IMG/VR virus record: IMGVR_UViG_3300021438_000002
DNA length: 35,868 nt
DNA from: an uncultured virus (IMG/VR IMGVR_UViG_3300021438_000002)
Taxonomy: Duplodnaviria; Heunggongvirae; Uroviricota; Caudoviricetes
Strand: one strand, 5' to 3'
In this document: one piece after another, positions 3,811-35,868 of the stretch
Layout of the letters: each line of letters starts with the position of its first letter
Numbering within the stretch: position 1 is the first letter of the stretch
Notes under the pieces: generated by a model
Database searches by the model: none
Seen by the model: the letters and a program-made list of their open reading frames with translations, nothing else
Told to the model about the DNA's origin: nothing
Program-made: the position numbers and the translations under genes

Positions 3811-4044
3811 ATGTCCGCATCAATTTTGCAGAGTCAGCAAGCATTTAGCCTTCCATCGGACCCAGGTGTCCATTGGAACGCTAATGCCGCTTCCTCTACC
3901 CCTGGAGCCAATGCAAACTCCGTAGGATTAAAGTCGCATGCTCGGGGGGTTATTGAGCGTGGTCCTAATACTCCACCACGTTCGTATGACGCCGCTACTG
4001 GAGGCAGAAGCGACGTAGACTACGGAGCAGTTTATGGCACTTAG
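3811..4044 (+). CDS. Hypothetical small protein
   Basis: AAGGA RBS after the upstream stop; ORF in operon. Confidence 0.55.
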   Translation: MSASILQSQQAFSLPSDPGVHWNANAASSTPGANANSVGLKSHARGVIERGPNTPPRSYDAATGGRSDVDYGAVYGT

Positions 4045-4315
4045 TCCACGTGCTCAAGGAGTGCTACAAAAGCACCGAGTAATGTCCCAACCTCAGTTTA
4101 AAACTGCAGGCATTGAGTCCCCCGTAGAATCAGGACCAGTTCAGTCAAAAGGTAAAGTGAACCAGAAATCTGGTGCGTTTAACATTGCCGTGAGTGATTT
4201 TAACAAGCAGACCCACAGCGACGAACACCCAGGTGTTTTGTCTTACCAGACTGCAACTAGCGGTACTTTCTTGAGTCAAAATGAAGAACCTGTAAAGCAA
4301 GAAGGCGGTTACTAA
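4034..4315 (+). CDS. Hypothetical protein
   Basis: GGAG RBS; overlaps neighbours. Confidence 0.6.
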   Translation: MALSPRAQGVLQKHRVMSQPQFKTAGIESPVESGPVQSKGKVNQKSGAFNIAVSDFNKQTHSDEHPGVLSYQTATSGTFLSQNEEPVKQEGGY

Positions 4316-5127
4316 TGCCTAGAGGTGCTGCAGAGTTTAACGTAGGTATCCAAGCGGCTGTTCCAGCAATAGCCAGAGGAGCCGCTGACTACACTCGACA
4401 AATGGGTCTTGCTCCACGCCCAGCGTCTTTCAATAACATAGCAGTGGATTTGCCACAAGCACAGGGTATCGCTAGAGACTATCTAGCAGCACCTGACTTT
4501 GACCCAGCGGCACTGCCACATTACAGAGCCATGCGTGACGAAATTGGTCGTCAATACGACTTTATGACTAAACCAGTTGCTAAAGGTGGATTAGGTCTAT
4601 CTCATACTATTACCGCAGAAGACCCATACCCATCTGCTCGTGCCATGTTTAACGATGTTTCCGAAGGCAGAATCAAGAGCCTTGCCACTAAAAGCACTGG
4701 CTCACATCCATTTTTTACTGATGATGAGAACGACATGTTCCGTGCCGTTCATGACGTATTTGGTCACGCTGGTTCTGGTCGTAATTTTAATCCTGCTGGA
4801 GAAGAGGCTGCTTTCCGTAGTCACTTTGGCATGTTTACCCCTTTGGCTCGTGGAGCCATGGCTGCAGGTACTCGTGGACAGAACAGCACTAATAACTTTG
4901 GTGGACAGCCACCAGGTTCTTATGTAAAGGGCAAGACTATTGTTTTGCCGTCTACTCTAAAGTTTTTGCCTACTCCAAACCAGTTAATTTTGCCAACAAA
5001 ACTTACAGCACAATCGTCCCTAGAAATGCCTGCTAACGTAGGTCAGCAATTCCTAGCCACTATGGAGCACGCTAGGTCGTTTGGTCTTCCAGGGGCTCCA
5101 CATCCAGAAGCGAAATGGTTGAACTAG
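4315..5127 (+). CDS. Phage protein with NDxFRAVHDxFGH...GEE...TRGQNS motif (metallopeptidase-like domain recalled from large phage polyvalent/ejection proteins)
   Basis: ENDMFRAVHDVFGH, AGEEAAFRSH, TRGQNS. Confidence 0.55.
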   Translation: MPRGAAEFNVGIQAAVPAIARGAADYTRQMGLAPRPASFNNIAVDLPQAQGIARDYLAAPDFDPAALPHYRAMRDEIGRQYDFMTKPVAKGGLGLSHTITAEDPYPSARAMFNDVSEGRIKSLATKSTGSHPFFTDDENDMFRAVHDVFGHAGSGRNFNPAGEEAAFRSHFGMFTPLARGAMAAGTRGQNSTNNFGGQPPGSYVKGKTIVLPSTLKFLPTPNQLILPTKLTAQSSLEMPANVGQQFLATMEHARSFGLPGAPHPEAKWLN

Positions 5128-5128
5128 C

Positions 5129-5662
5129 ATGGCAGGTGGAGTAAATAACTATAGTGCCCAGCAAAACTGGCAATCTCTTGGCGGTAACGGCTTCAGTGGT
5201 TACAACAACCAAGGTGGTTTTGGTGGTCCTGTTGCACGTGGTGAACTGGACGCTATGCGTATCGGTACTGGACGTGTTCCACAAGCAGAATACCCTGATG
5301 GCTACTTAGGTACCATCCGCAGCCGTCGTGATGACCGCTTACTTGACTCCATTAAGAGTCGCCTAGGGCAAAAGTCTTACCAGCGTGGTGTCCATAAGGG
5401 TGAGCGTATTGAGCCATCTATGTACTACTGGTCACCAAGTTTCAACGCAGACATGGGCATCAAGCGTCAGATGAAGGCAAAGCAAGTACTGGATAACGGA
5501 GTTGTAGTCTGGAAAACCCCGAGAATGGGTCAAGACCTAAACCTCGTACCTGCTCCACACCTAGTAAATGACGGTAAAGCCAACACTGTGGCTAACGGTC
5601 CAACTGTTATTAACGCCCAACGTGCCAACGCCTTGAATTACTTGAAGCCAGTGTGGAGATAA
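5129..5662 (+). CDS. Conserved-looking hypothetical phage protein
   Basis: 177-aa ORF, Gly/Asn-rich N-terminus, globular-looking core (YPDGYLGTI...YQRGVHKGERI). Confidence 0.7.
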   Translation: MAGGVNNYSAQQNWQSLGGNGFSGYNNQGGFGGPVARGELDAMRIGTGRVPQAEYPDGYLGTIRSRRDDRLLDSIKSRLGQKSYQRGVHKGERIEPSMYYWSPSFNADMGIKRQMKAKQVLDNGVVVWKTPRMGQDLNLVPAPHLVNDGKANTVANGPTVINAQRANALNYLKPVWR

Positions 5663-5663
5663 G

Positions 5664-6047
5664 ATGCCAGCAAATCTCGCTACCTCGGGCTTCGGTTATG
5701 GAAGCAATGAAACTGATGGTCGTTACGACCACACTAAGCCATGGTCTGGTCCTGGGCAATCAGGTAACTGGTCATACCGTGGTCCATGGTCAAGCAACGA
5801 AGAGAAGTTGATTCAACAGGCTCTAGTTGTAAACAGCATGAAGCGTCAACTTATCCAAGAGATGGTGCGACCTCCATTACCTCAGATTCAATTGTTTCCA
5901 CAAAAAACTGGGTACATTATGGAGCAGCCAGGAATTGATGATGTCGTCAGTGCTGACAGAGTTTACATGGAGCCACGAGTTCAGTGGTTCTCTGGAGGTA
6001 TTGGCAGTTACTCAGGTAGCACACGTAATGGATTGGAAGGTGTCTAA
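5664..6047 (+). CDS. Hypothetical protein
   Basis: GGAG RBS, coupled ORF. Confidence 0.65.
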   Translation: MPANLATSGFGYGSNETDGRYDHTKPWSGPGQSGNWSYRGPWSSNEEKLIQQALVVNSMKRQLIQEMVRPPLPQIQLFPQKTGYIMEQPGIDDVVSADRVYMEPRVQWFSGGIGSYSGSTRNGLEGV

Positions 6048-6682
6048 TGGAGCAAGTTGATACTTTTCCTCATTTTGAAGAAGTTGCACCAGCAGAAGCC
6101 TCGTTATTTCTAAACAAGATACGTACTGCTAAAAAGTCACAGCCTCAAGGTGCTGCCGTAGATGTCCAGTCTTTAAACACCTATAAAACGCACAAGATGT
6201 TCATGACCAGAGATGGTTTAGCAGGCTATTCGGTTTCTCCTAGTGGAGAACTTACTTCGGTATTTAAGCATAAAAACGCTCCATACAAAGATGTTGCTCG
6301 TCACGCAGCCGAACACGCAGTTTTAATGGCAGGTGCTACCCATGCATCAGCGTTTGATGGCTACTTAACAGAAGCCTATGCTCGTGGAGGTATGAAGTCT
6401 GTGGCATACCAGCCGTTTGCTGACGAATACAAGCCAACTGGATGGAAGTTCGAGACTCACGGCAGACCTGATGTAGCGTTTGTCGCCGCAGACCGCTCCG
6501 TAGCACACGCAGCCATTTCGGCTCAACAAACTACCCAAAAGTTTTATGGACACCATTTCCAAGGCGGATTGCGAGCCCCGACAATCGATGACAATGATTT
6601 GGGGTACCAAAAAGCAAAAGAGGCTGGCGAAGCAAACACTGCCGAACAAATACCGAGTGCGAGACGTAATGCCAGCAAATAG
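6047..6682 (+). CDS. Divergent GNAT-fold-like protein
   Basis: AGYSVSPSGELTSVF...AFDGYLTEAY...GW....G.PDVAFV pattern resembles GNAT-like domains of phage polyvalent proteins. Confidence 0.45.
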   Translation: MEQVDTFPHFEEVAPAEASLFLNKIRTAKKSQPQGAAVDVQSLNTYKTHKMFMTRDGLAGYSVSPSGELTSVFKHKNAPYKDVARHAAEHAVLMAGATHASAFDGYLTEAYARGGMKSVAYQPFADEYKPTGWKFETHGRPDVAFVAADRSVAHAAISAQQTTQKFYGHHFQGGLRAPTIDDNDLGYQKAKEAGEANTAEQIPSARRNASK

Positions 6683-30312: not shown

Positions 30313-30408
30313 CACCATTTAGAGACATTCCTAGAGCCCAGTAAACATAAGGGTTGTAGAGGCGTTGGAGAGTTGCCGATGGGCGTGTCTAAGTGCTCCA
30401 TAGGGGTG

Positions 30409-30459
30409 TTTTTTGAGCGTTTTTGAGGGTGTTTTTGGGGTCATTTTGGGGGTGTTTTT
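30409..30459. other. Phased T/A tracts (bent DNA)
   Basis: T4-6 runs starting at 30409, 30420, 30432, 30444, 30455. Confidence 0.6.
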
Positions 30460-31278
30460 GGAGCCTCTGGAGCCCCTCTGGAGAGGGTCGAGGAGCCAGC
30501 GTCAGGCACCCCACCTGAGCCGTCCAGCGACCCAGTAACGGCACCCAGTGACCGAGCCAGCCGATGGGTCAGGAGGAGCCCTAGGAGCCCCTAGGAAGCC
30601 CCTGCACCCTGCCGACCGACCATCGGGGGGTTCGGGGGGCAGAGCCCCCTGTGAGGTCACACAGAGGGTCAGGATGACAGAGAGAGACACACAGAGAGGG
30701 TAATCAGATGCAGTCAGAGAGGAAGTTTTGCTGATGGGTGCCCTGCTTGATGGTGCACTGGTGGGTGATGGCTGGCATAGCCCCATACGGGGCTGTGGGG
30801 CTGATGGAGGGCATGTCAGGTCAGTATGAGGTGGATACCCAGTCAGGGGGGTCGTGGTCACCACGAGGCTGTTATGACCTGATAGCAAGGTGGAGGGGGT
30901 GCTGTATGGCTGGCGGTACAGCCACGAGCCACCTGTCAACTGTCACAGTAGCCAAAAGAGCCTATGGAGCCATCAGCCACGCCATCACTCGGTCACCTGA
31001 CCACCCCTGAACCCCTTGTAAACACTGGGGTCAGGCAGGTGGTGCCACCTCACTGGGAGTCAGGGGGGCAGGTGGTTATGGAGGTCTGTGGAGGGGGGCA
31101 GGTTAGACGAGGTCGCAGGACGGAACCGCCAGATGACACGCCCGAATCACGTCTACAAAGATGACGCAGTAGCCTAAAGTCGCCCCTGCCTCCATAAAAC
31201 GCCCCTGCTCCACAGCCTCCACAGCAAAAAGTGTCAGTTTAGCCAGAGAGACAGACACACACCCGTCATAATGGCTTT

Positions 31279-31620
31279 ATGAGTAATAGAAACCCTAATA
31301 GCACCCTTTCACCGCTATTTCAGCCACCAAACTTCCAAGACGTTAATCAAGGTCCTATGAGGGCTAACAAGGCTAAAGAGATTCTTTGGCATGCCCACGC
31401 TAGGTACATCCAAGCAGGGGTGCCAAAAGACATCCTTGCTGCTATGGAGCCGCACATCAAGCAGGCTGCTAGAGGCTACTACGACAGACATGTCAAGGGC
31501 TCTCAGGATGCTAACCCAGAGCAGAGCGTGGCTCACATTGCCACTTTAGGCACTTTTGGTGGTGCTCCAGAAGTAATCGGCGAGAACTTACAGCGTCTGT
31601 TGGACAAACACGGTCTGTAA
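31279..31620 (+). CDS. Hypothetical protein, probably leaderless
   Basis: CATAAT 6 nt upstream of ATG, no RBS. Confidence 0.65.
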   Translation: MSNRNPNSTLSPLFQPPNFQDVNQGPMRANKAKEILWHAHARYIQAGVPKDILAAMEPHIKQAARGYYDRHVKGSQDANPEQSVAHIATLGTFGGAPEVIGENLQRLLDKHGL

Positions 31621-31622
31621 TT

Positions 31623-31964
31623 GTGCTCAATCCAGAACAATTCAAGGAGCATCTGAATAGTCTTCCTACACATCGCACTGCAGAGGACCTATTCGGCAGT
31701 GTCATGCTAGAAGACCACGAGGACCTCCATGGTCGTTTTGACGAGGCTGGCGGAGATGACGCCAAACTTTTGAAGATGAAGTACAAAAACGCCAAGGAAA
31801 ACGGTCTAAAAGACGACATTTTGAAAAATGGCATTCAAGACCCTATTGAGATACACGTTGACCGTTATGGAGACCAGACTTTGACTCAAGGACATCACCG
31901 TTTGGCAGTCATGCTAAAGCATCGTCCAACTACCCCTATCCCTATTTCGTATTGGGAAGGCTAA
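31623..31964 (+). CDS. ParB/Srx N-terminal-like domain protein
   Basis: LKDDILKNGIQDPIEI...QGHHRLAV. Confidence 0.75.
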   Translation: MLNPEQFKEHLNSLPTHRTAEDLFGSVMLEDHEDLHGRFDEAGGDDAKLLKMKYKNAKENGLKDDILKNGIQDPIEIHVDRYGDQTLTQGHHRLAVMLKHRPTTPIPISYWEG

Positions 31965-32345
31965 ATGGGAGCAAATAATGCCGATTTCCACGGTTACACT
32001 TTTGAACTGCAAGAAGGTCCTGTAAACCACGTCATTACCGCTAGAACTTCTGACGGAAAAAGAGTGGGAGAACTGGGTCTACATAAATTCGGTTCTACTG
32101 CGAGCATTAGTTGGATTACAGTCCACCCTGACTGGAGAAGAAAAGGAATTGCCACAGCAATGTGGAAGCATGCCAATGACCTCCATAACCAAGGTATCCT
32201 AGAGAAAAAACCAGAGATGAGTGGCTTTAGAACCATTGATGGAGATAACTGGGCTAAGTCACTTGGTGAAGACATTCCAGAAAACAAAATGCCACCAGAG
32301 CAGAGCAATCCTAAATACTTAGACAAAGAAGCATGGGGTAGGTAA
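31965..32345 (+). CDS. GNAT acetyltransferase with MGANNADF leader
   Basis: ISWITVHPDWRRKGIATAMW acetyl-CoA motif A. Confidence 0.85.
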   Translation: MGANNADFHGYTFELQEGPVNHVITARTSDGKRVGELGLHKFGSTASISWITVHPDWRRKGIATAMWKHANDLHNQGILEKKPEMSGFRTIDGDNWAKSLGEDIPENKMPPEQSNPKYLDKEAWGR

Positions 32346-32779
32346 TGGGAGCAAATAACGGAGATTTTGCCGCTGGTCACAGTGGAGATGCCAAGATAGC
32401 GTACGAGCCATACACAGACAAAAATGGCAACACCATGCATGCTTTTCAGATGAGAGATGCTCACGATAACCTACTTGGGCATCTAAACCTAGATTCATCA
32501 GGGATGATTCAGCAGATAGAGACTCGCCCCGAGTTTCGTCGTCAAGGCATCGCTACTGCTCTATACAACCATGCTGTGGCAGCGAGTCAGACGAATCCTG
32601 CTATTCCTACTCCTAGACATTCTGGTTCAAGAACACCATCAGGCAATGCTTGGGCTAGAGCAGTGGCTAGAAGGTCTAATGAGCCACTTGTGCCACAAAG
32701 AACAAAGGTATCTCCTAGTACATACGCTATGCGTGCAGCAATGTGGGAAATGATGCTGCCATTGAGCAGGGGTAAATAA
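32345..32779 (+). CDS. GNAT acetyltransferase with MGANNGDF leader
   Basis: IETRPEFRRQGIATALY; HSGSRTPSGNAWA. Confidence 0.85.
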   Translation: MGANNGDFAAGHSGDAKIAYEPYTDKNGNTMHAFQMRDAHDNLLGHLNLDSSGMIQQIETRPEFRRQGIATALYNHAVAASQTNPAIPTPRHSGSRTPSGNAWARAVARRSNEPLVPQRTKVSPSTYAMRAAMWEMMLPLSRGK

Positions 32780-33165
32780 TGAGTGCTAATAACGAAGACT
32801 TTGGTAATGGCACAGGTACTGGTCGCTCCATAACCATGTACCACGGAACTGATGAAGATTCCGCCAAAAGCATCATGGCTAATGGTTTCCGTGACAATGT
32901 CTACTTACACCCTAATCCAACCATTGCAGGAGACTACGGCAGCCACATCGTCAAGGTCACTATCCCAGACAACTTGAAGTTTGAAAGCCCTTATTACTAC
33001 GAGCGAGACCACGATGGCGAAGAGGCGGATGGCACATACGACGAGAACTACTACAGTCCGCACAACTCTGAAAACCCTGACCGAATTATCTACGATGGTC
33101 GCAAAGTCACCCCTATCTCTATGTACAAGCACGATTACGTAACTTCAGCGGGGTATCAAGAATAG
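32779..33165 (+). CDS. ADP-ribosyltransferase-like protein with MSANNEDF leader
   Basis: MYHGT....AKSIMANGF...VYL......A..YG. Confidence 0.6.
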   Translation: MSANNEDFGNGTGTGRSITMYHGTDEDSAKSIMANGFRDNVYLHPNPTIAGDYGSHIVKVTIPDNLKFESPYYYERDHDGEEADGTYDENYYSPHNSENPDRIIYDGRKVTPISMYKHDYVTSAGYQE

Positions 33166-33578
33166 TGGGTGCTAATAATGCAGACTTTCAAGGTGGATTT
33201 GAAGGATTTACGGAGGCGTATCACGTAAGTCCTAGAGCCAATAGGGAGTCTATTGAGGCTAACGGATTTGACCCAGAGAAAAGTCAAACCAGAAGTTTTG
33301 GCGATGACCGTTATCTTCCTGGAGTTTTTGGGCACGTTCATAAAGAAGACGTAGACCCTACGTATGCGATGGGATGGCAGCCAGGTTTATTGTCAAATGC
33401 GGGGGGTGATGTTTACCGCTACAGATTGCCTAACAAAGACAATCAATGGGATGAGAACAGCATTTTGGATTCTGTGCGTACTTCCAGTAAAATCCCGCCA
33501 CACCACATTGAGCGTGTAGGTCACGTTACTTCTACTGGAAAACTACACTGGCATCCAGAGGAGCAATGTAATGACTAG
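33165..33578 (+). CDS. ADP-ribosyltransferase-like protein with MGANNADF leader (GTG start)
   Basis: AYHVSPRANRESIEANGF...GVF...KIPPHHIERVG. Confidence 0.55.
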   Translation: MGANNADFQGGFEGFTEAYHVSPRANRESIEANGFDPEKSQTRSFGDDRYLPGVFGHVHKEDVDPTYAMGWQPGLLSNAGGDVYRYRLPNKDNQWDENSILDSVRTSSKIPPHHIERVGHVTSTGKLHWHPEEQCND

Positions 33579-33867
33579 AAATAATGCAGACTTCCATGGG
33601 TACACCTTTGACCATTCATCTTCTGAGGATGGCACTGCCGTAGTTGCTTATCACCCAGAAGAGCGTAATCCTGTGGGCATGTTGTACTTAGAACCAAATT
33701 ATGGAGATGGCGGTCTAGTCCGAGACGTTAACGTCTTAAATGCTCATCGTCGTAAAGGAGTTGCCGCAGGTATGTGGAACTATGCCAAAAACAATGGACT
33801 GAATCCACTTCACTCCAAAAACCAAACTGCCCTAGGTAAACAATGGGCGAAAGCAGTAGGTGACTAA
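33571..33867 (+). CDS. GNAT acetyltransferase with MTRNNADF leader
   Basis: VRDVNVLNAHRRKGVAAGMW; HSKNQTALGKQWA. Confidence 0.85.
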   Translation: MTRNNADFHGYTFDHSSSEDGTAVVAYHPEERNPVGMLYLEPNYGDGGLVRDVNVLNAHRRKGVAAGMWNYAKNNGLNPLHSKNQTALGKQWAKAVGD

Positions 33868-34568
33868 TGGAACCAAGTAGACAGATAAACAAGCACGAAG
33901 CAGATGAGGCAAAGATTCTTTCTGCTTTAGGTCCTAGATTTAAACAGGGTAACTACTCGCTGCACTTTAGCCATGAGTATGGCGAAAACTATCGTCTAAA
34001 CGCCTTGTGGAAGCCACCAGGGCAAAAAACACACATTGGCGTAGGCAGTTTGGGGTTTGACGCTAGAACTGGCGAGACCCATGTATCTGTGCACCCTGAA
34101 CACCACAACACCGCTGTAGCACCTGTCTTATTAGCAGCAGGCAATAAAATTAGCCGTCTTTTGGGTGGTGTTGGCTTACAGGGTGTTCGTAACACTACTG
34201 ATGATAGTTTCAGGTTGATAAAAAGATTCTTTCCCGCTGATTCAACAAAAATCACGCTCCGAAATCCGCAAGAACCTATGGGCGATGCTACAACTAAGTT
34301 ATACGTTCAATCAGAAGGAGCCCATGCGTTGGGCAGGGTTAGGTATCAAGCAGGGGTTAATGACTCAGATTTTGTAGTTCATTCTTGCTTTAGTTGTGGT
34401 GGCACTCGGTCAGACCGCAGATGGATGACTGACCGTGTGTGGTCGCAGGCGAATGAGCCACGAAGACGAGCGAATCAAGGCATGATTCCAGCAGACTGTC
34501 CAGACTGTAAAGGTTCTGGTGTCGAAATACAGGGGCGTACTCCTGAACGTGTCATTGGATTACGTTAA
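33867..34568 (+). CDS. Degenerate GNAT-like domain plus DnaJ-type zinc finger
   Basis: VGSL...VSVHPEHHNTAVAPVLL; CFSCGGT...CPDCKGSG. Confidence 0.5.
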   Translation: MEPSRQINKHEADEAKILSALGPRFKQGNYSLHFSHEYGENYRLNALWKPPGQKTHIGVGSLGFDARTGETHVSVHPEHHNTAVAPVLLAAGNKISRLLGGVGLQGVRNTTDDSFRLIKRFFPADSTKITLRNPQEPMGDATTKLYVQSEGAHALGRVRYQAGVNDSDFVVHSCFSCGGTRSDRRWMTDRVWSQANEPRRRANQGMIPADCPDCKGSGVEIQGRTPERVIGLR

Positions 34569-34606: not shown

Positions 34607-35868
34607 ATGCCCGAGATAACTCCTGAAACTAATGAATCGAATCCTGAGTGCCCTTTCTGCGGCGATAATCACCCTATCGACCTATCGGCTGCTGGAAACG
34701 TAACGTATAGCCAACCAGGCAGAGAAGGCGTATTAACTTTTCCGCATCACACTCCTTGTTCTACTTGTGGTACTTACCACGCAAGAGGGCTAAACCACAA
34801 CACATGCGGTACTTGTGGCGAGGTGCACTCAGACATACGTCCTTGGGCTTATGGAAGAGGCGATGATGCCAACATAATGCTTGAAAACCCACAGCATGGT
34901 CCTAATCGCTATTGTGAGGGCTGTAATGATTATGTTGACCAAGAACATGCCGATGATTGGGAAGAACGCCATTATGGCAGTGAAGTTCGTGACTCAGAAG
35001 CCCAAGACGAAGGTTGGCATTCAAGATACCCTAGAAATGAACACGAACTAGTTAATGAAGAACCAGAGCGTGTAGCAGGTATTAATGAGCGTCTTGGCAA
35101 AATAATTAAGATGCATGATGCCCGTGTAGCAGACAGCCCTTATTTTATTAAGCATGCCCCGTCAGGAACCTACTATGGTCAACACGGTAACAATGTGCAG
35201 GTTTATCACAGGAATGCTCCAAATACCCGTGTAGGTAGTTTGACCTATGATGATGAAGGCACAGTGGGCTCAATGTACATTGACCACCGTCACCAAGGCA
35301 CTATGGCAGCCGTTCAAATGCTTGTTGCTGCTCACCGTCATCTTAAAGACACTGTTGGCAATCCAATTGGGTTATTGCGTACTGAAAGCACTACAAATCA
35401 ATCTGCTGGTCTAATTAAGAACATTGACCCAAACAGTACTTATCTACGCCATGACAATGCGGATGAAGGTAAAAATGAAAACTGGGTTGATGGACAAAGC
35501 GACATTAGCAATACGCCACTTAGAAATGACTCTTTACGATTAACTAAAGAAGAGTGGCAAAGAAAGTCCGAAGAGTCGGGGCGTTCTGTGGCTGACCTGT
35601 TGGCGATGAGTTATGACCCTAAAAACCGCTATGTTGCGTATGATGCAGGTCGTCCAAGTGATGAGGCTAAGGCAATTGGTGAACAAATTAAAAAACACCA
35701 AGACGAAGAGTCAAAGGACGAAGAAAAACAATACAAACGTGTAGTCGGCACTGCTGCTGCCAACATAATCGCACAAGGTGTGCATGAAGTTCCAGGAGAC
35801 ATGCCTGCTCATGATTGGCTAGAGAATGCATGGAAACCCTCTGCACGAGACCGAATCGATGCTCTGCG
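34607..35868 (+). CDS. Large protein, truncated at the window end: N-terminal CxxC-x3-H zinc modules and a degenerate GNAT-like domain; absent from ORF track
   Basis: Open frame from ATG 34607 (MPEITPETNESNPECPFCGDNH...) to the end; VGSLTY...MYIDHRHQGTMAAVQML. Confidence 0.7.
   Translation, partial: MPEITPETNESNPECPFCGDNHPIDLSAAGNVTYSQPGREGVLTFPHHTPCSTCGTYHARGLNHNTCGTCGEVHSDIRPWAYGRGDDANIMLENPQHGPNRYCEGCNDYVDQEHADDWEERHYGSEVRDSEAQDEGWHSRYPRNEHELVNEEPERVAGINERLGKIIKMHDARVADSPYFIKHAPSGTYYGQHGNNVQVYHRNAPNTRVGSLTYDDEGTVGSMYIDHRHQGTMAAVQMLVAAHRHLKDTVGNPIGLLRTESTTNQSAGLIKNIDPNSTYLRHDNADEGKNENWVDGQSDISNTPLRNDSLRLTKEEWQRKSEESGRSVADLLAMSYDPKNRYVAYDAGRPSDEAKAIGEQIKKHQDEESKDEEKQYKRVVGTAAANIIAQGVHEVPGDMPAHDWLENAWKPSARDRIDAL

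Follow-up and report, generated by a model that had tools for sequence, protein, structure and literature searches.

A Phe-anchored peptide on unrelated small proteins of an uncultured freshwater actinophage: a candidate head-loading signal

Why do five consecutive phage genes, whose products belong to unrelated folds, begin with nearly the same short peptide? The question is raised by a 35,868-nucleotide stretch of an uncultured member of the Caudoviricetes (IMG/VR record IMGVR_UViG_3300021438_000002), hereafter the window. The initial annotation had proposed that the peptide addresses a modular arsenal of host-modifying effectors to the capsid or a common scaffold. The five N-termini that it quoted were confirmed at 31965, 32345, 32779, 33165 and 33571, the fourth gene having a GTG start codon, and a six-frame search of the window found the shared pattern NN.DF five times, always at residues 4-8 of these genes, compared with a mean of 0.055 and a maximum of 1 in 200 base shuffles of the window. 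The five ORFs encode separate polypeptides of 98-144 aa each and abut or overlap at stop/start junctions. The array also extends beyond the 31965..33867 interval first described, the genes at 31279, 31623 and 33867 bearing variant tags. Its members, together with a possible second patch, are as follows (the second dialect is defined below).

31279..31620, + strand: first gene of the rightward array, with variant tag TLSPLF, which by eye resembles LSPMF of relatives
31623..31964, + strand: probable ParB/Srx-like protein with second-dialect tag MLNPEQF, kin to bodies with a weak ParB_N match, itself without a Pfam match
31965..32345, + strand: GNAT acetyltransferase-like protein, tagged MGANNADFHG, 126 aa (Pfam PF13508, E 1.4e-7; RRKGIA motif)
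32345..32779, + strand: GNAT-like protein, tagged MGANNGDF, 144 aa (Pfam PF00583, 22.5 bits)
32779..33165, + strand: probable ADP-ribosyltransferase (ART)-fold protein, tagged MSANNEDF, 128 aa, with YHGT (weak ART-PolyVal match; Atlas neighbours)
33165..33578, + strand: predicted ART-fold protein, tagged MGANNADFQG, 137 aa, GTG start (structural match of the predicted model)
33571..33867, + strand: GNAT-like protein, tagged MTRNNADFHG, 98 aa (Pfam GNAT match above cut-off)
33867..34568, + strand: array gene with degenerate tag MEPSRQI (MEPGRQF and MEPGRQL in relatives), without an assigned family
34607..35868, + strand: larger array gene truncated by the window end, no tag seen, relatives known
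4034..5127, + strand: possible second patch after spoVS, comprising 4034 (with SQPQF close to its start) and 4315 (MPRGAAEF), noted by eye; tagged genes occupy a similar place in relatives

The five bodies had been described as three GNAT acetyltransferases and two ART-like proteins. The GNAT part stands, with all three (31965, 32345 and 33571) above the PF00583 cut-off and motif A, defined as R/Q-x-x-G-x-A, present in this cargo, marking them as putative acetyltransferases. The ART part was borne out structurally for 33165 and is weaker for 32779, for which the ART-PolyVal match is sub-threshold (E 0.0029; 18.8 bits, the cut-off being 31.2) and the ART-family neighbours in the Atlas fall below the naming bar. 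Sequence searches with 33165 returned no Pfam match, no Pfam family common to its 27 family members from the homologue search and no match to the PDB. Its predicted model (mean pLDDT 85) aligned with TreX (Z 9.9, rmsd 3.2, 107 aligned, model residues 14-132), TreTu (Z 8.0) and KptA/Tpt1 (Z 8.2), and the His at strand 1 of the ART fold was found as H20, nearly invariant across homologues. Foldseek, which the initial annotation had suggested for the bodies, gave no match for this model at E<=0.001, and the rows at E>0.001 came from the same superfamily. On its model, 33165 is thus predicted to be an ART fold, and 32779 is probably one as judged from sequence. The 33165 family also has a conserved C-terminal RVGH...HWHxEExC module (window:33510-33575), possibly metal-binding.

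As had been claimed, the tag is independent of the fold behind it, since profiles of the unrelated ART (A1) and GNAT (A2) families align over columns 1-11 only and residues 1-5 are modelled at pLDDT <50 in both the 33165 ART and the 33571 GNAT model. It is accordingly highly improbable that the tag forms a structural element of these folds. Such a role would fit the nearly fixed spacing between tag and strand 1 in GNAT cargo and the single bridge formed by F8 in the GNAT model, where strand 1 begins at residue 11; set against it, the best ART structural matches of 33165 begin at residues 12-14, the distance from the tag Phe to the first H-x-[ST] ranges from 2 to 27 residues, and low-complexity proteins are headed by the tag too. 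Homologues keep the peptide. By reading, the 33165 homologues (n = 26) comprised 22 with NNADF-like tags, 2 with the second dialect, 1 degenerate and 1 untagged, in a search whose query included the tag and whose 27 matches were reduced by dropping P0037 (2,362 aa, a short spurious match), whilst a body-only search with 32779 yielded four close homologues, all four tagged.

By sequence, the window phage is a freshwater relative of the Streptomyces myophage BRock/GiJojo. Its Cas4 is 36% identical to the BRock/GiJojo counterpart, and the portal of a window relative is 55% identical to theirs; GiJojo is described as a cluster BS myovirus (PMC11465772). The window encodes WhiB, reported to serve as an actinophage marker (PMC6802176), as well as SpoVS, a class II ribonucleotide reductase and one integrase-family gene. 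The sequencing runs that best cover it are freshwater metagenomes, one of them possibly its origin, and the carrier viruses are a common group, uncultured, freshwater and predicted to infect Actinobacteria. Complete relatives have genomes of 91-98 kb. Marker trees pair the window only with G001, its nearest record, whose sequence does not include the tagged array, and deeper forks are mostly unsupported. A search of genome contigs with one pattern, NNADFHG, gave no match and hence neither host nor prophage. In relatives the array opens a rightward unit that continues with Hsp20 and lysis-type genes, terminase, portal, scaffold and capsid, and for which we infer late expression; no RNA data set was listed among the runs covering the window, and a promoter/terminator scan did not exceed the shuffle level.

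Several other features of the window were recorded. Phage-encoded SpoVS (window:3014-3316) was present in 12 of the 12 relatives examined, and two genes after the apparent spoVS of GiJojo, at the position of window genes 4034 and 4315, the 79-aa gene gp166 (L190:11068-11307) carries SRNAEF close to its start. The early strand encodes a pair of an AAA ATPase and a VWA-domain protein (window:25500-29122, - strand). A queuine tRNA-ribosyltransferase-like gene (window:12111-13583; PHROG 887) has as its counterpart, at the matching place in GiJojo, a gene annotated dpdA-like, which suggests DNA base modification. Between the divergent arms lies a GC-rich stretch of ~1.2 kb without a convincing gene (window:30000-31278), with short direct repeats at 30404-30472, which is kept in related strains.

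Tabulating the cargo across relatives, as the initial annotation had advised, showed that the tag recurs on many body types. Pattern scans for the NNADF class, excluding matches <55 aa, recovered 61 tagged proteins (54 non-redundant) in 16 BLAST body clusters; as proteins chosen by their tag, the 54 show breadth rather than frequency. They included 21 GNAT, about 10 Arr-like ART and five members of the 33165 family, the remainder being ParB-like, zinc-finger-like and low-complexity bodies, and tagged cargo was mostly 80-190 aa in size. Relatives also use a second dialect, N-L-[SGN]-x-x-[QL]-F (NLSxxQF) and LG[KR]QF (LGKQF), for which 152 tagged proteins were called in 45 loci after removal of three duplicate loci, with none called in three of the 45. 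Homologues carrying this dialect were found for 40 of the 54 NNADF-class bodies. The product of 31623 (MLNPEQF) and its orthologue (MARSDEF) are 72% identical without gaps and with the Phe in register, and the sequence MGAENNLGPMF bridges the two dialects. The tag Phe falls between residues 7 and 25 or close to the C-terminus, the tag also following N-terminal extensions. NNADF is thus one dialect of a wider Phe-anchored tag, and homologous bodies can exchange one dialect for another with the register kept. The strict NNADF pattern was present in four of the five records first picked by tag or cargo, in seven of 21 further records and in none of the five of those that were >=90% complete; it is a lineage dialect. 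The near-complete relatives G010 and G013 had no tagged genes in the zone, and some genomes are almost without the array. No published description of this tag was found in a literature search that covered subscription journals and supplements thinly, and virion proteomics of BS/C phages may exist. A sliding-clamp-motif reading was dropped, the clamp-binding motif being QLxLF and NNADF and NLSxxQF being without its leading Gln. Some array proteins do contain QPTLF, QLPMF or QLAMF (L048:14616-16274; L151:1864-2274, 5618-6483), which we take to resemble that motif.

The synonymous differences among the five tag codings, previously taken to indicate selection on the peptide, are real, and the selection they implied was upheld, as departures cluster at third codon positions. 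For codons 4, 5, 7 and 8, bases differing from the majority of their column numbered 1/224, 8/224 and 85/224 at positions 1, 2 and 3, respectively (0/132, 7/132 and 42/132 for the same codons of non-GNAT cargo), and at N5, D7 and F8 the residues are fixed while third positions show background diversity. Other codons are biased, with AAT in 31/35 at residue 4, GCA in 28/35 at residue 6 and AGA in 26/35 for Arg at residue 3; the bias at N4 and A6 fits a shared DNA origin or start-region bias. TA precedes the start in 39/54 tagged genes.

The array was also found to be modular and fast-changing, as proposed, with related strains gaining or losing whole genes at tags. In related-strain contigs, aligned at 80% likeness, the joint 32348->32783 (run X5) leaves one whole GNAT (32345) cleanly absent, the tag of 33165 is kept before the sequence diverges (33185, 33190), and 31613-31964 is swapped for 1,072 other letters, whereas short-sided joints (e.g. 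31994->33567) may be tag cross-matches. Array gene orders differ likewise in L018, L015, L186 and L188. This coincidence of strain breakpoints with tags, the three biased codons (residues 3, 4 and 6) and the TA before the start would all suit an explanation in which the conserved start matters only as nucleic acid, acting as a recombination boundary and/or a translation-coupling leader. We consider it improbable in view of the fixed residues with freely varying third positions at N5, D7 and F8 and of a Phe that moves along the protein or to its other end. Gene conversion was not detected, tags within a genome being no closer at synonymous sites than those between genomes (p 0.25), and start-region RNA folding revealed nothing shared or remarkable (z -0.33 to 0.71). 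A secondary recombination role for the tag codons is likely.

What, then, might the peptide do? Tagged ORFs made up 36/428 of those upstream of the capsid gene on the same strand, 19/829 elsewhere on that strand, 1/470 on the opposite (early) strand and 1/298 in internal control windows, counts obtained with a crude gene caller and regexes written after the data were seen, on collection scans that select for tags; the number of tagged genes per genome ranged from 0 to 10. The array thus shares a strand with the structural genes and lies upstream of those for the head. From the breadth of the tag, the peptide-level selection, the exchange of dialects and the enrichment upstream of the capsid gene, we lean, with a little better than even confidence, towards the tag being a head-loading signal like the capsid-targeting sequence (CTS) of T4, carried by a hypervariable array of predicted host-modifying enzymes. 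The tag would be a portable docking label, anchored on its invariant Phe, by which unrelated small proteins are brought to the prohead during assembly, either to the inward side of the capsid protein or to the scaffold. The cargo would then travel inside the capsid and be ejected into the next host, where it could acetylate or ADP-ribosylate host targets. A gene gaining the first 8-12 codons would join the arsenal, the array turning over gene by gene at tag starts. Binding partner, packaging, ejection and activity of the tagged proteins are what we infer here.

Several observations count against head loading, among them the two near-complete relatives without tagged genes in the zone and, as described below, the weak likeness of scaffold tails to the tag and the failure to find a protease that would release cargo. 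In addition, a distance of ~10-25 kb that includes non-virion genes (e.g. Hsp20) separates the array from the head genes, and a HAD hydrolase located between array and head genes starts with the tag-like MSKNNDF. A small heat-shock protein (IbpA-like, Hsp20) follows the array in L018 (7957-8487) and many other loci. Both the HAD hydrolase and the position of Hsp20 would suit a tag through which the enzymes dock on some common intracellular partner (for instance a phage hub, the neighbouring Hsp20, or a protease or adaptor of the host) and which controls their localisation or turnover, as would a tag at either terminus and the failure to find a head protease in five complete relatives. We rate such docking as unlikely, albeit the likeliest alternative, given that the tag is nearly missing from the early strand, that Hsp20 persists in G010 with no tagged genes in the zone, and that cluster C phages encode homologous domains close to the portal gene. 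In the mycobacteriophage Tonenili, ParB-like, GNAT and ART-like domains are joined in the 751-aa protein gp97, three genes before the portal, and array bodies show direct BLAST homology to it, an arrangement that we also count in favour of head loading. Between the gp97 domains (Tonenili, L038:11419-17727) the motif [RK]-T-A-[GS] is repeated, recurring in gp258, gp257 and the portal; in cluster C it may mark a site for a protease or for targeting.

Contractile injection systems use N-terminal loading signals, and the tag might instead guide its cargo to the contractile tail. Among cultured phages the nearest relative is a myovirus that has genes for sheath and tube, and the cargo is small, both of which would accommodate tail loading; folded globular domains, with as many as about 10 types of cargo in one genome, would, we reason, suit the head better, and no test pointed to the tail, making this distinctly improbable.

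Within the head-loading reading, the scaffold offers a candidate model for the docking site. It ends in a GLF-containing tail in 75/80 capsid loci, mostly N-[RS]-G-[QRK]-G-L-F (e.g. NRGQGLF), the other five having given nothing (n = 3) or spurious matches (n = 2), and by eye this tail resembles NLSQQLF. Scored among 6,853 Phe windows, nine scaffold tails ranked at the 84th-97th percentile with the second-dialect matrix and at the 48th-94th with the NNADF matrix, a likeness to the tag that is weak and suggestive at best. Portal, scaffold and capsid genes are adjacent in relatives, and no HK97-, T4- or ClpP-type protease (PF04586, PF03420, PF00574) was detected in the five complete relatives, the PF03420 (S77) control being silent; T4-style clipping is therefore doubtful, although a divergent protease may be present. 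A more specific proposal, which we put forward tentatively as possible rather than probable, is a protease-independent loading code, used by a very abundant clade of freshwater actinophages, in which an either-end, dialect-drifting Phe peptide fills the scaffold-tail pocket of the capsid protein, dozens of single-domain host-modifying enzymes amounting to a 'distributed polyvalent protein' reshuffled by recombination at the tag codons.

The tag provides a sequence handle with which the arsenal that a large uncultured clade probably delivers from its virions can be catalogued, many of its cargo families being without a name; among 8,000 scored candidates, 3,896 capsid-protein clusters matched at E<=1e-10, distant relatives included. 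Protease-free head loading, if true, would widen the T4 CTS principle to actinophages, and a peptide of 8-12 residues would become available for directing proteins into their capsids. Experimental tests are feasible, as the cultured relatives GiJojo and BRock carry tag traces.

Among known systems, which serve here as analogies, the phage polyvalent proteins are proposed early-acting virion effectors with several domains per polypeptide (PMC5512222), and ARTs have been proposed as frequent virion cargo in myoviruses (PMC9503650). The array shares the GNAT, ART and ParB-like repertoire of such proteins, as seen in Tonenili gp97, but here the domains are encoded one per gene, each bearing a tag of its own. 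The cluster BS phages BRock and GiJojo share the portal-scaffold-capsid order, the GiJojo scaffold ending SNRGLFG, whereas the 52 GiJojo genes read contained no tagged enzyme array, only traces such as that in gp166. In Staphylococcus aureus, the 80alpha scaffold and SaPI CpmB have a C-terminal RIIK motif in common that gives CpmB, which redirects capsid size, access to the place where the scaffold binds the capsid protein (PMC5644958). The scaffold tail of the relatives (NRGQGLF), closing on a conserved Phe, recalls this pair, although CpmB is not cargo and the similarity of tag to scaffold tail is weak. The analogy with T4 internal proteins, drawn from the outset, holds in part. The T4 CTS is described as a ~10-residue N-terminal peptide on internal proteins IPI-III and Alt, whose system includes clipping of cargo by a prohead protease of the gp21 type (PMC9026906). 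In both cases a short, fold-separable N-terminal peptide of about ten residues is common to divergent small proteins, an ADP-ribosyltransferase, in our case a predicted one, is among the cargo and the repertoire varies between related phages. The tag described here, a candidate packaging signal, differs in its own sequence and its dialects, in having no evident cleavage site and no gp21-type protease found (control silent), and in its occurrence after N-terminal extensions and at C-termini. Overall, we do not file the array as a member of the T4 CTS system, and by analogy we consider it slightly favoured that it works in the same way, which is the most plausible account of the tag.
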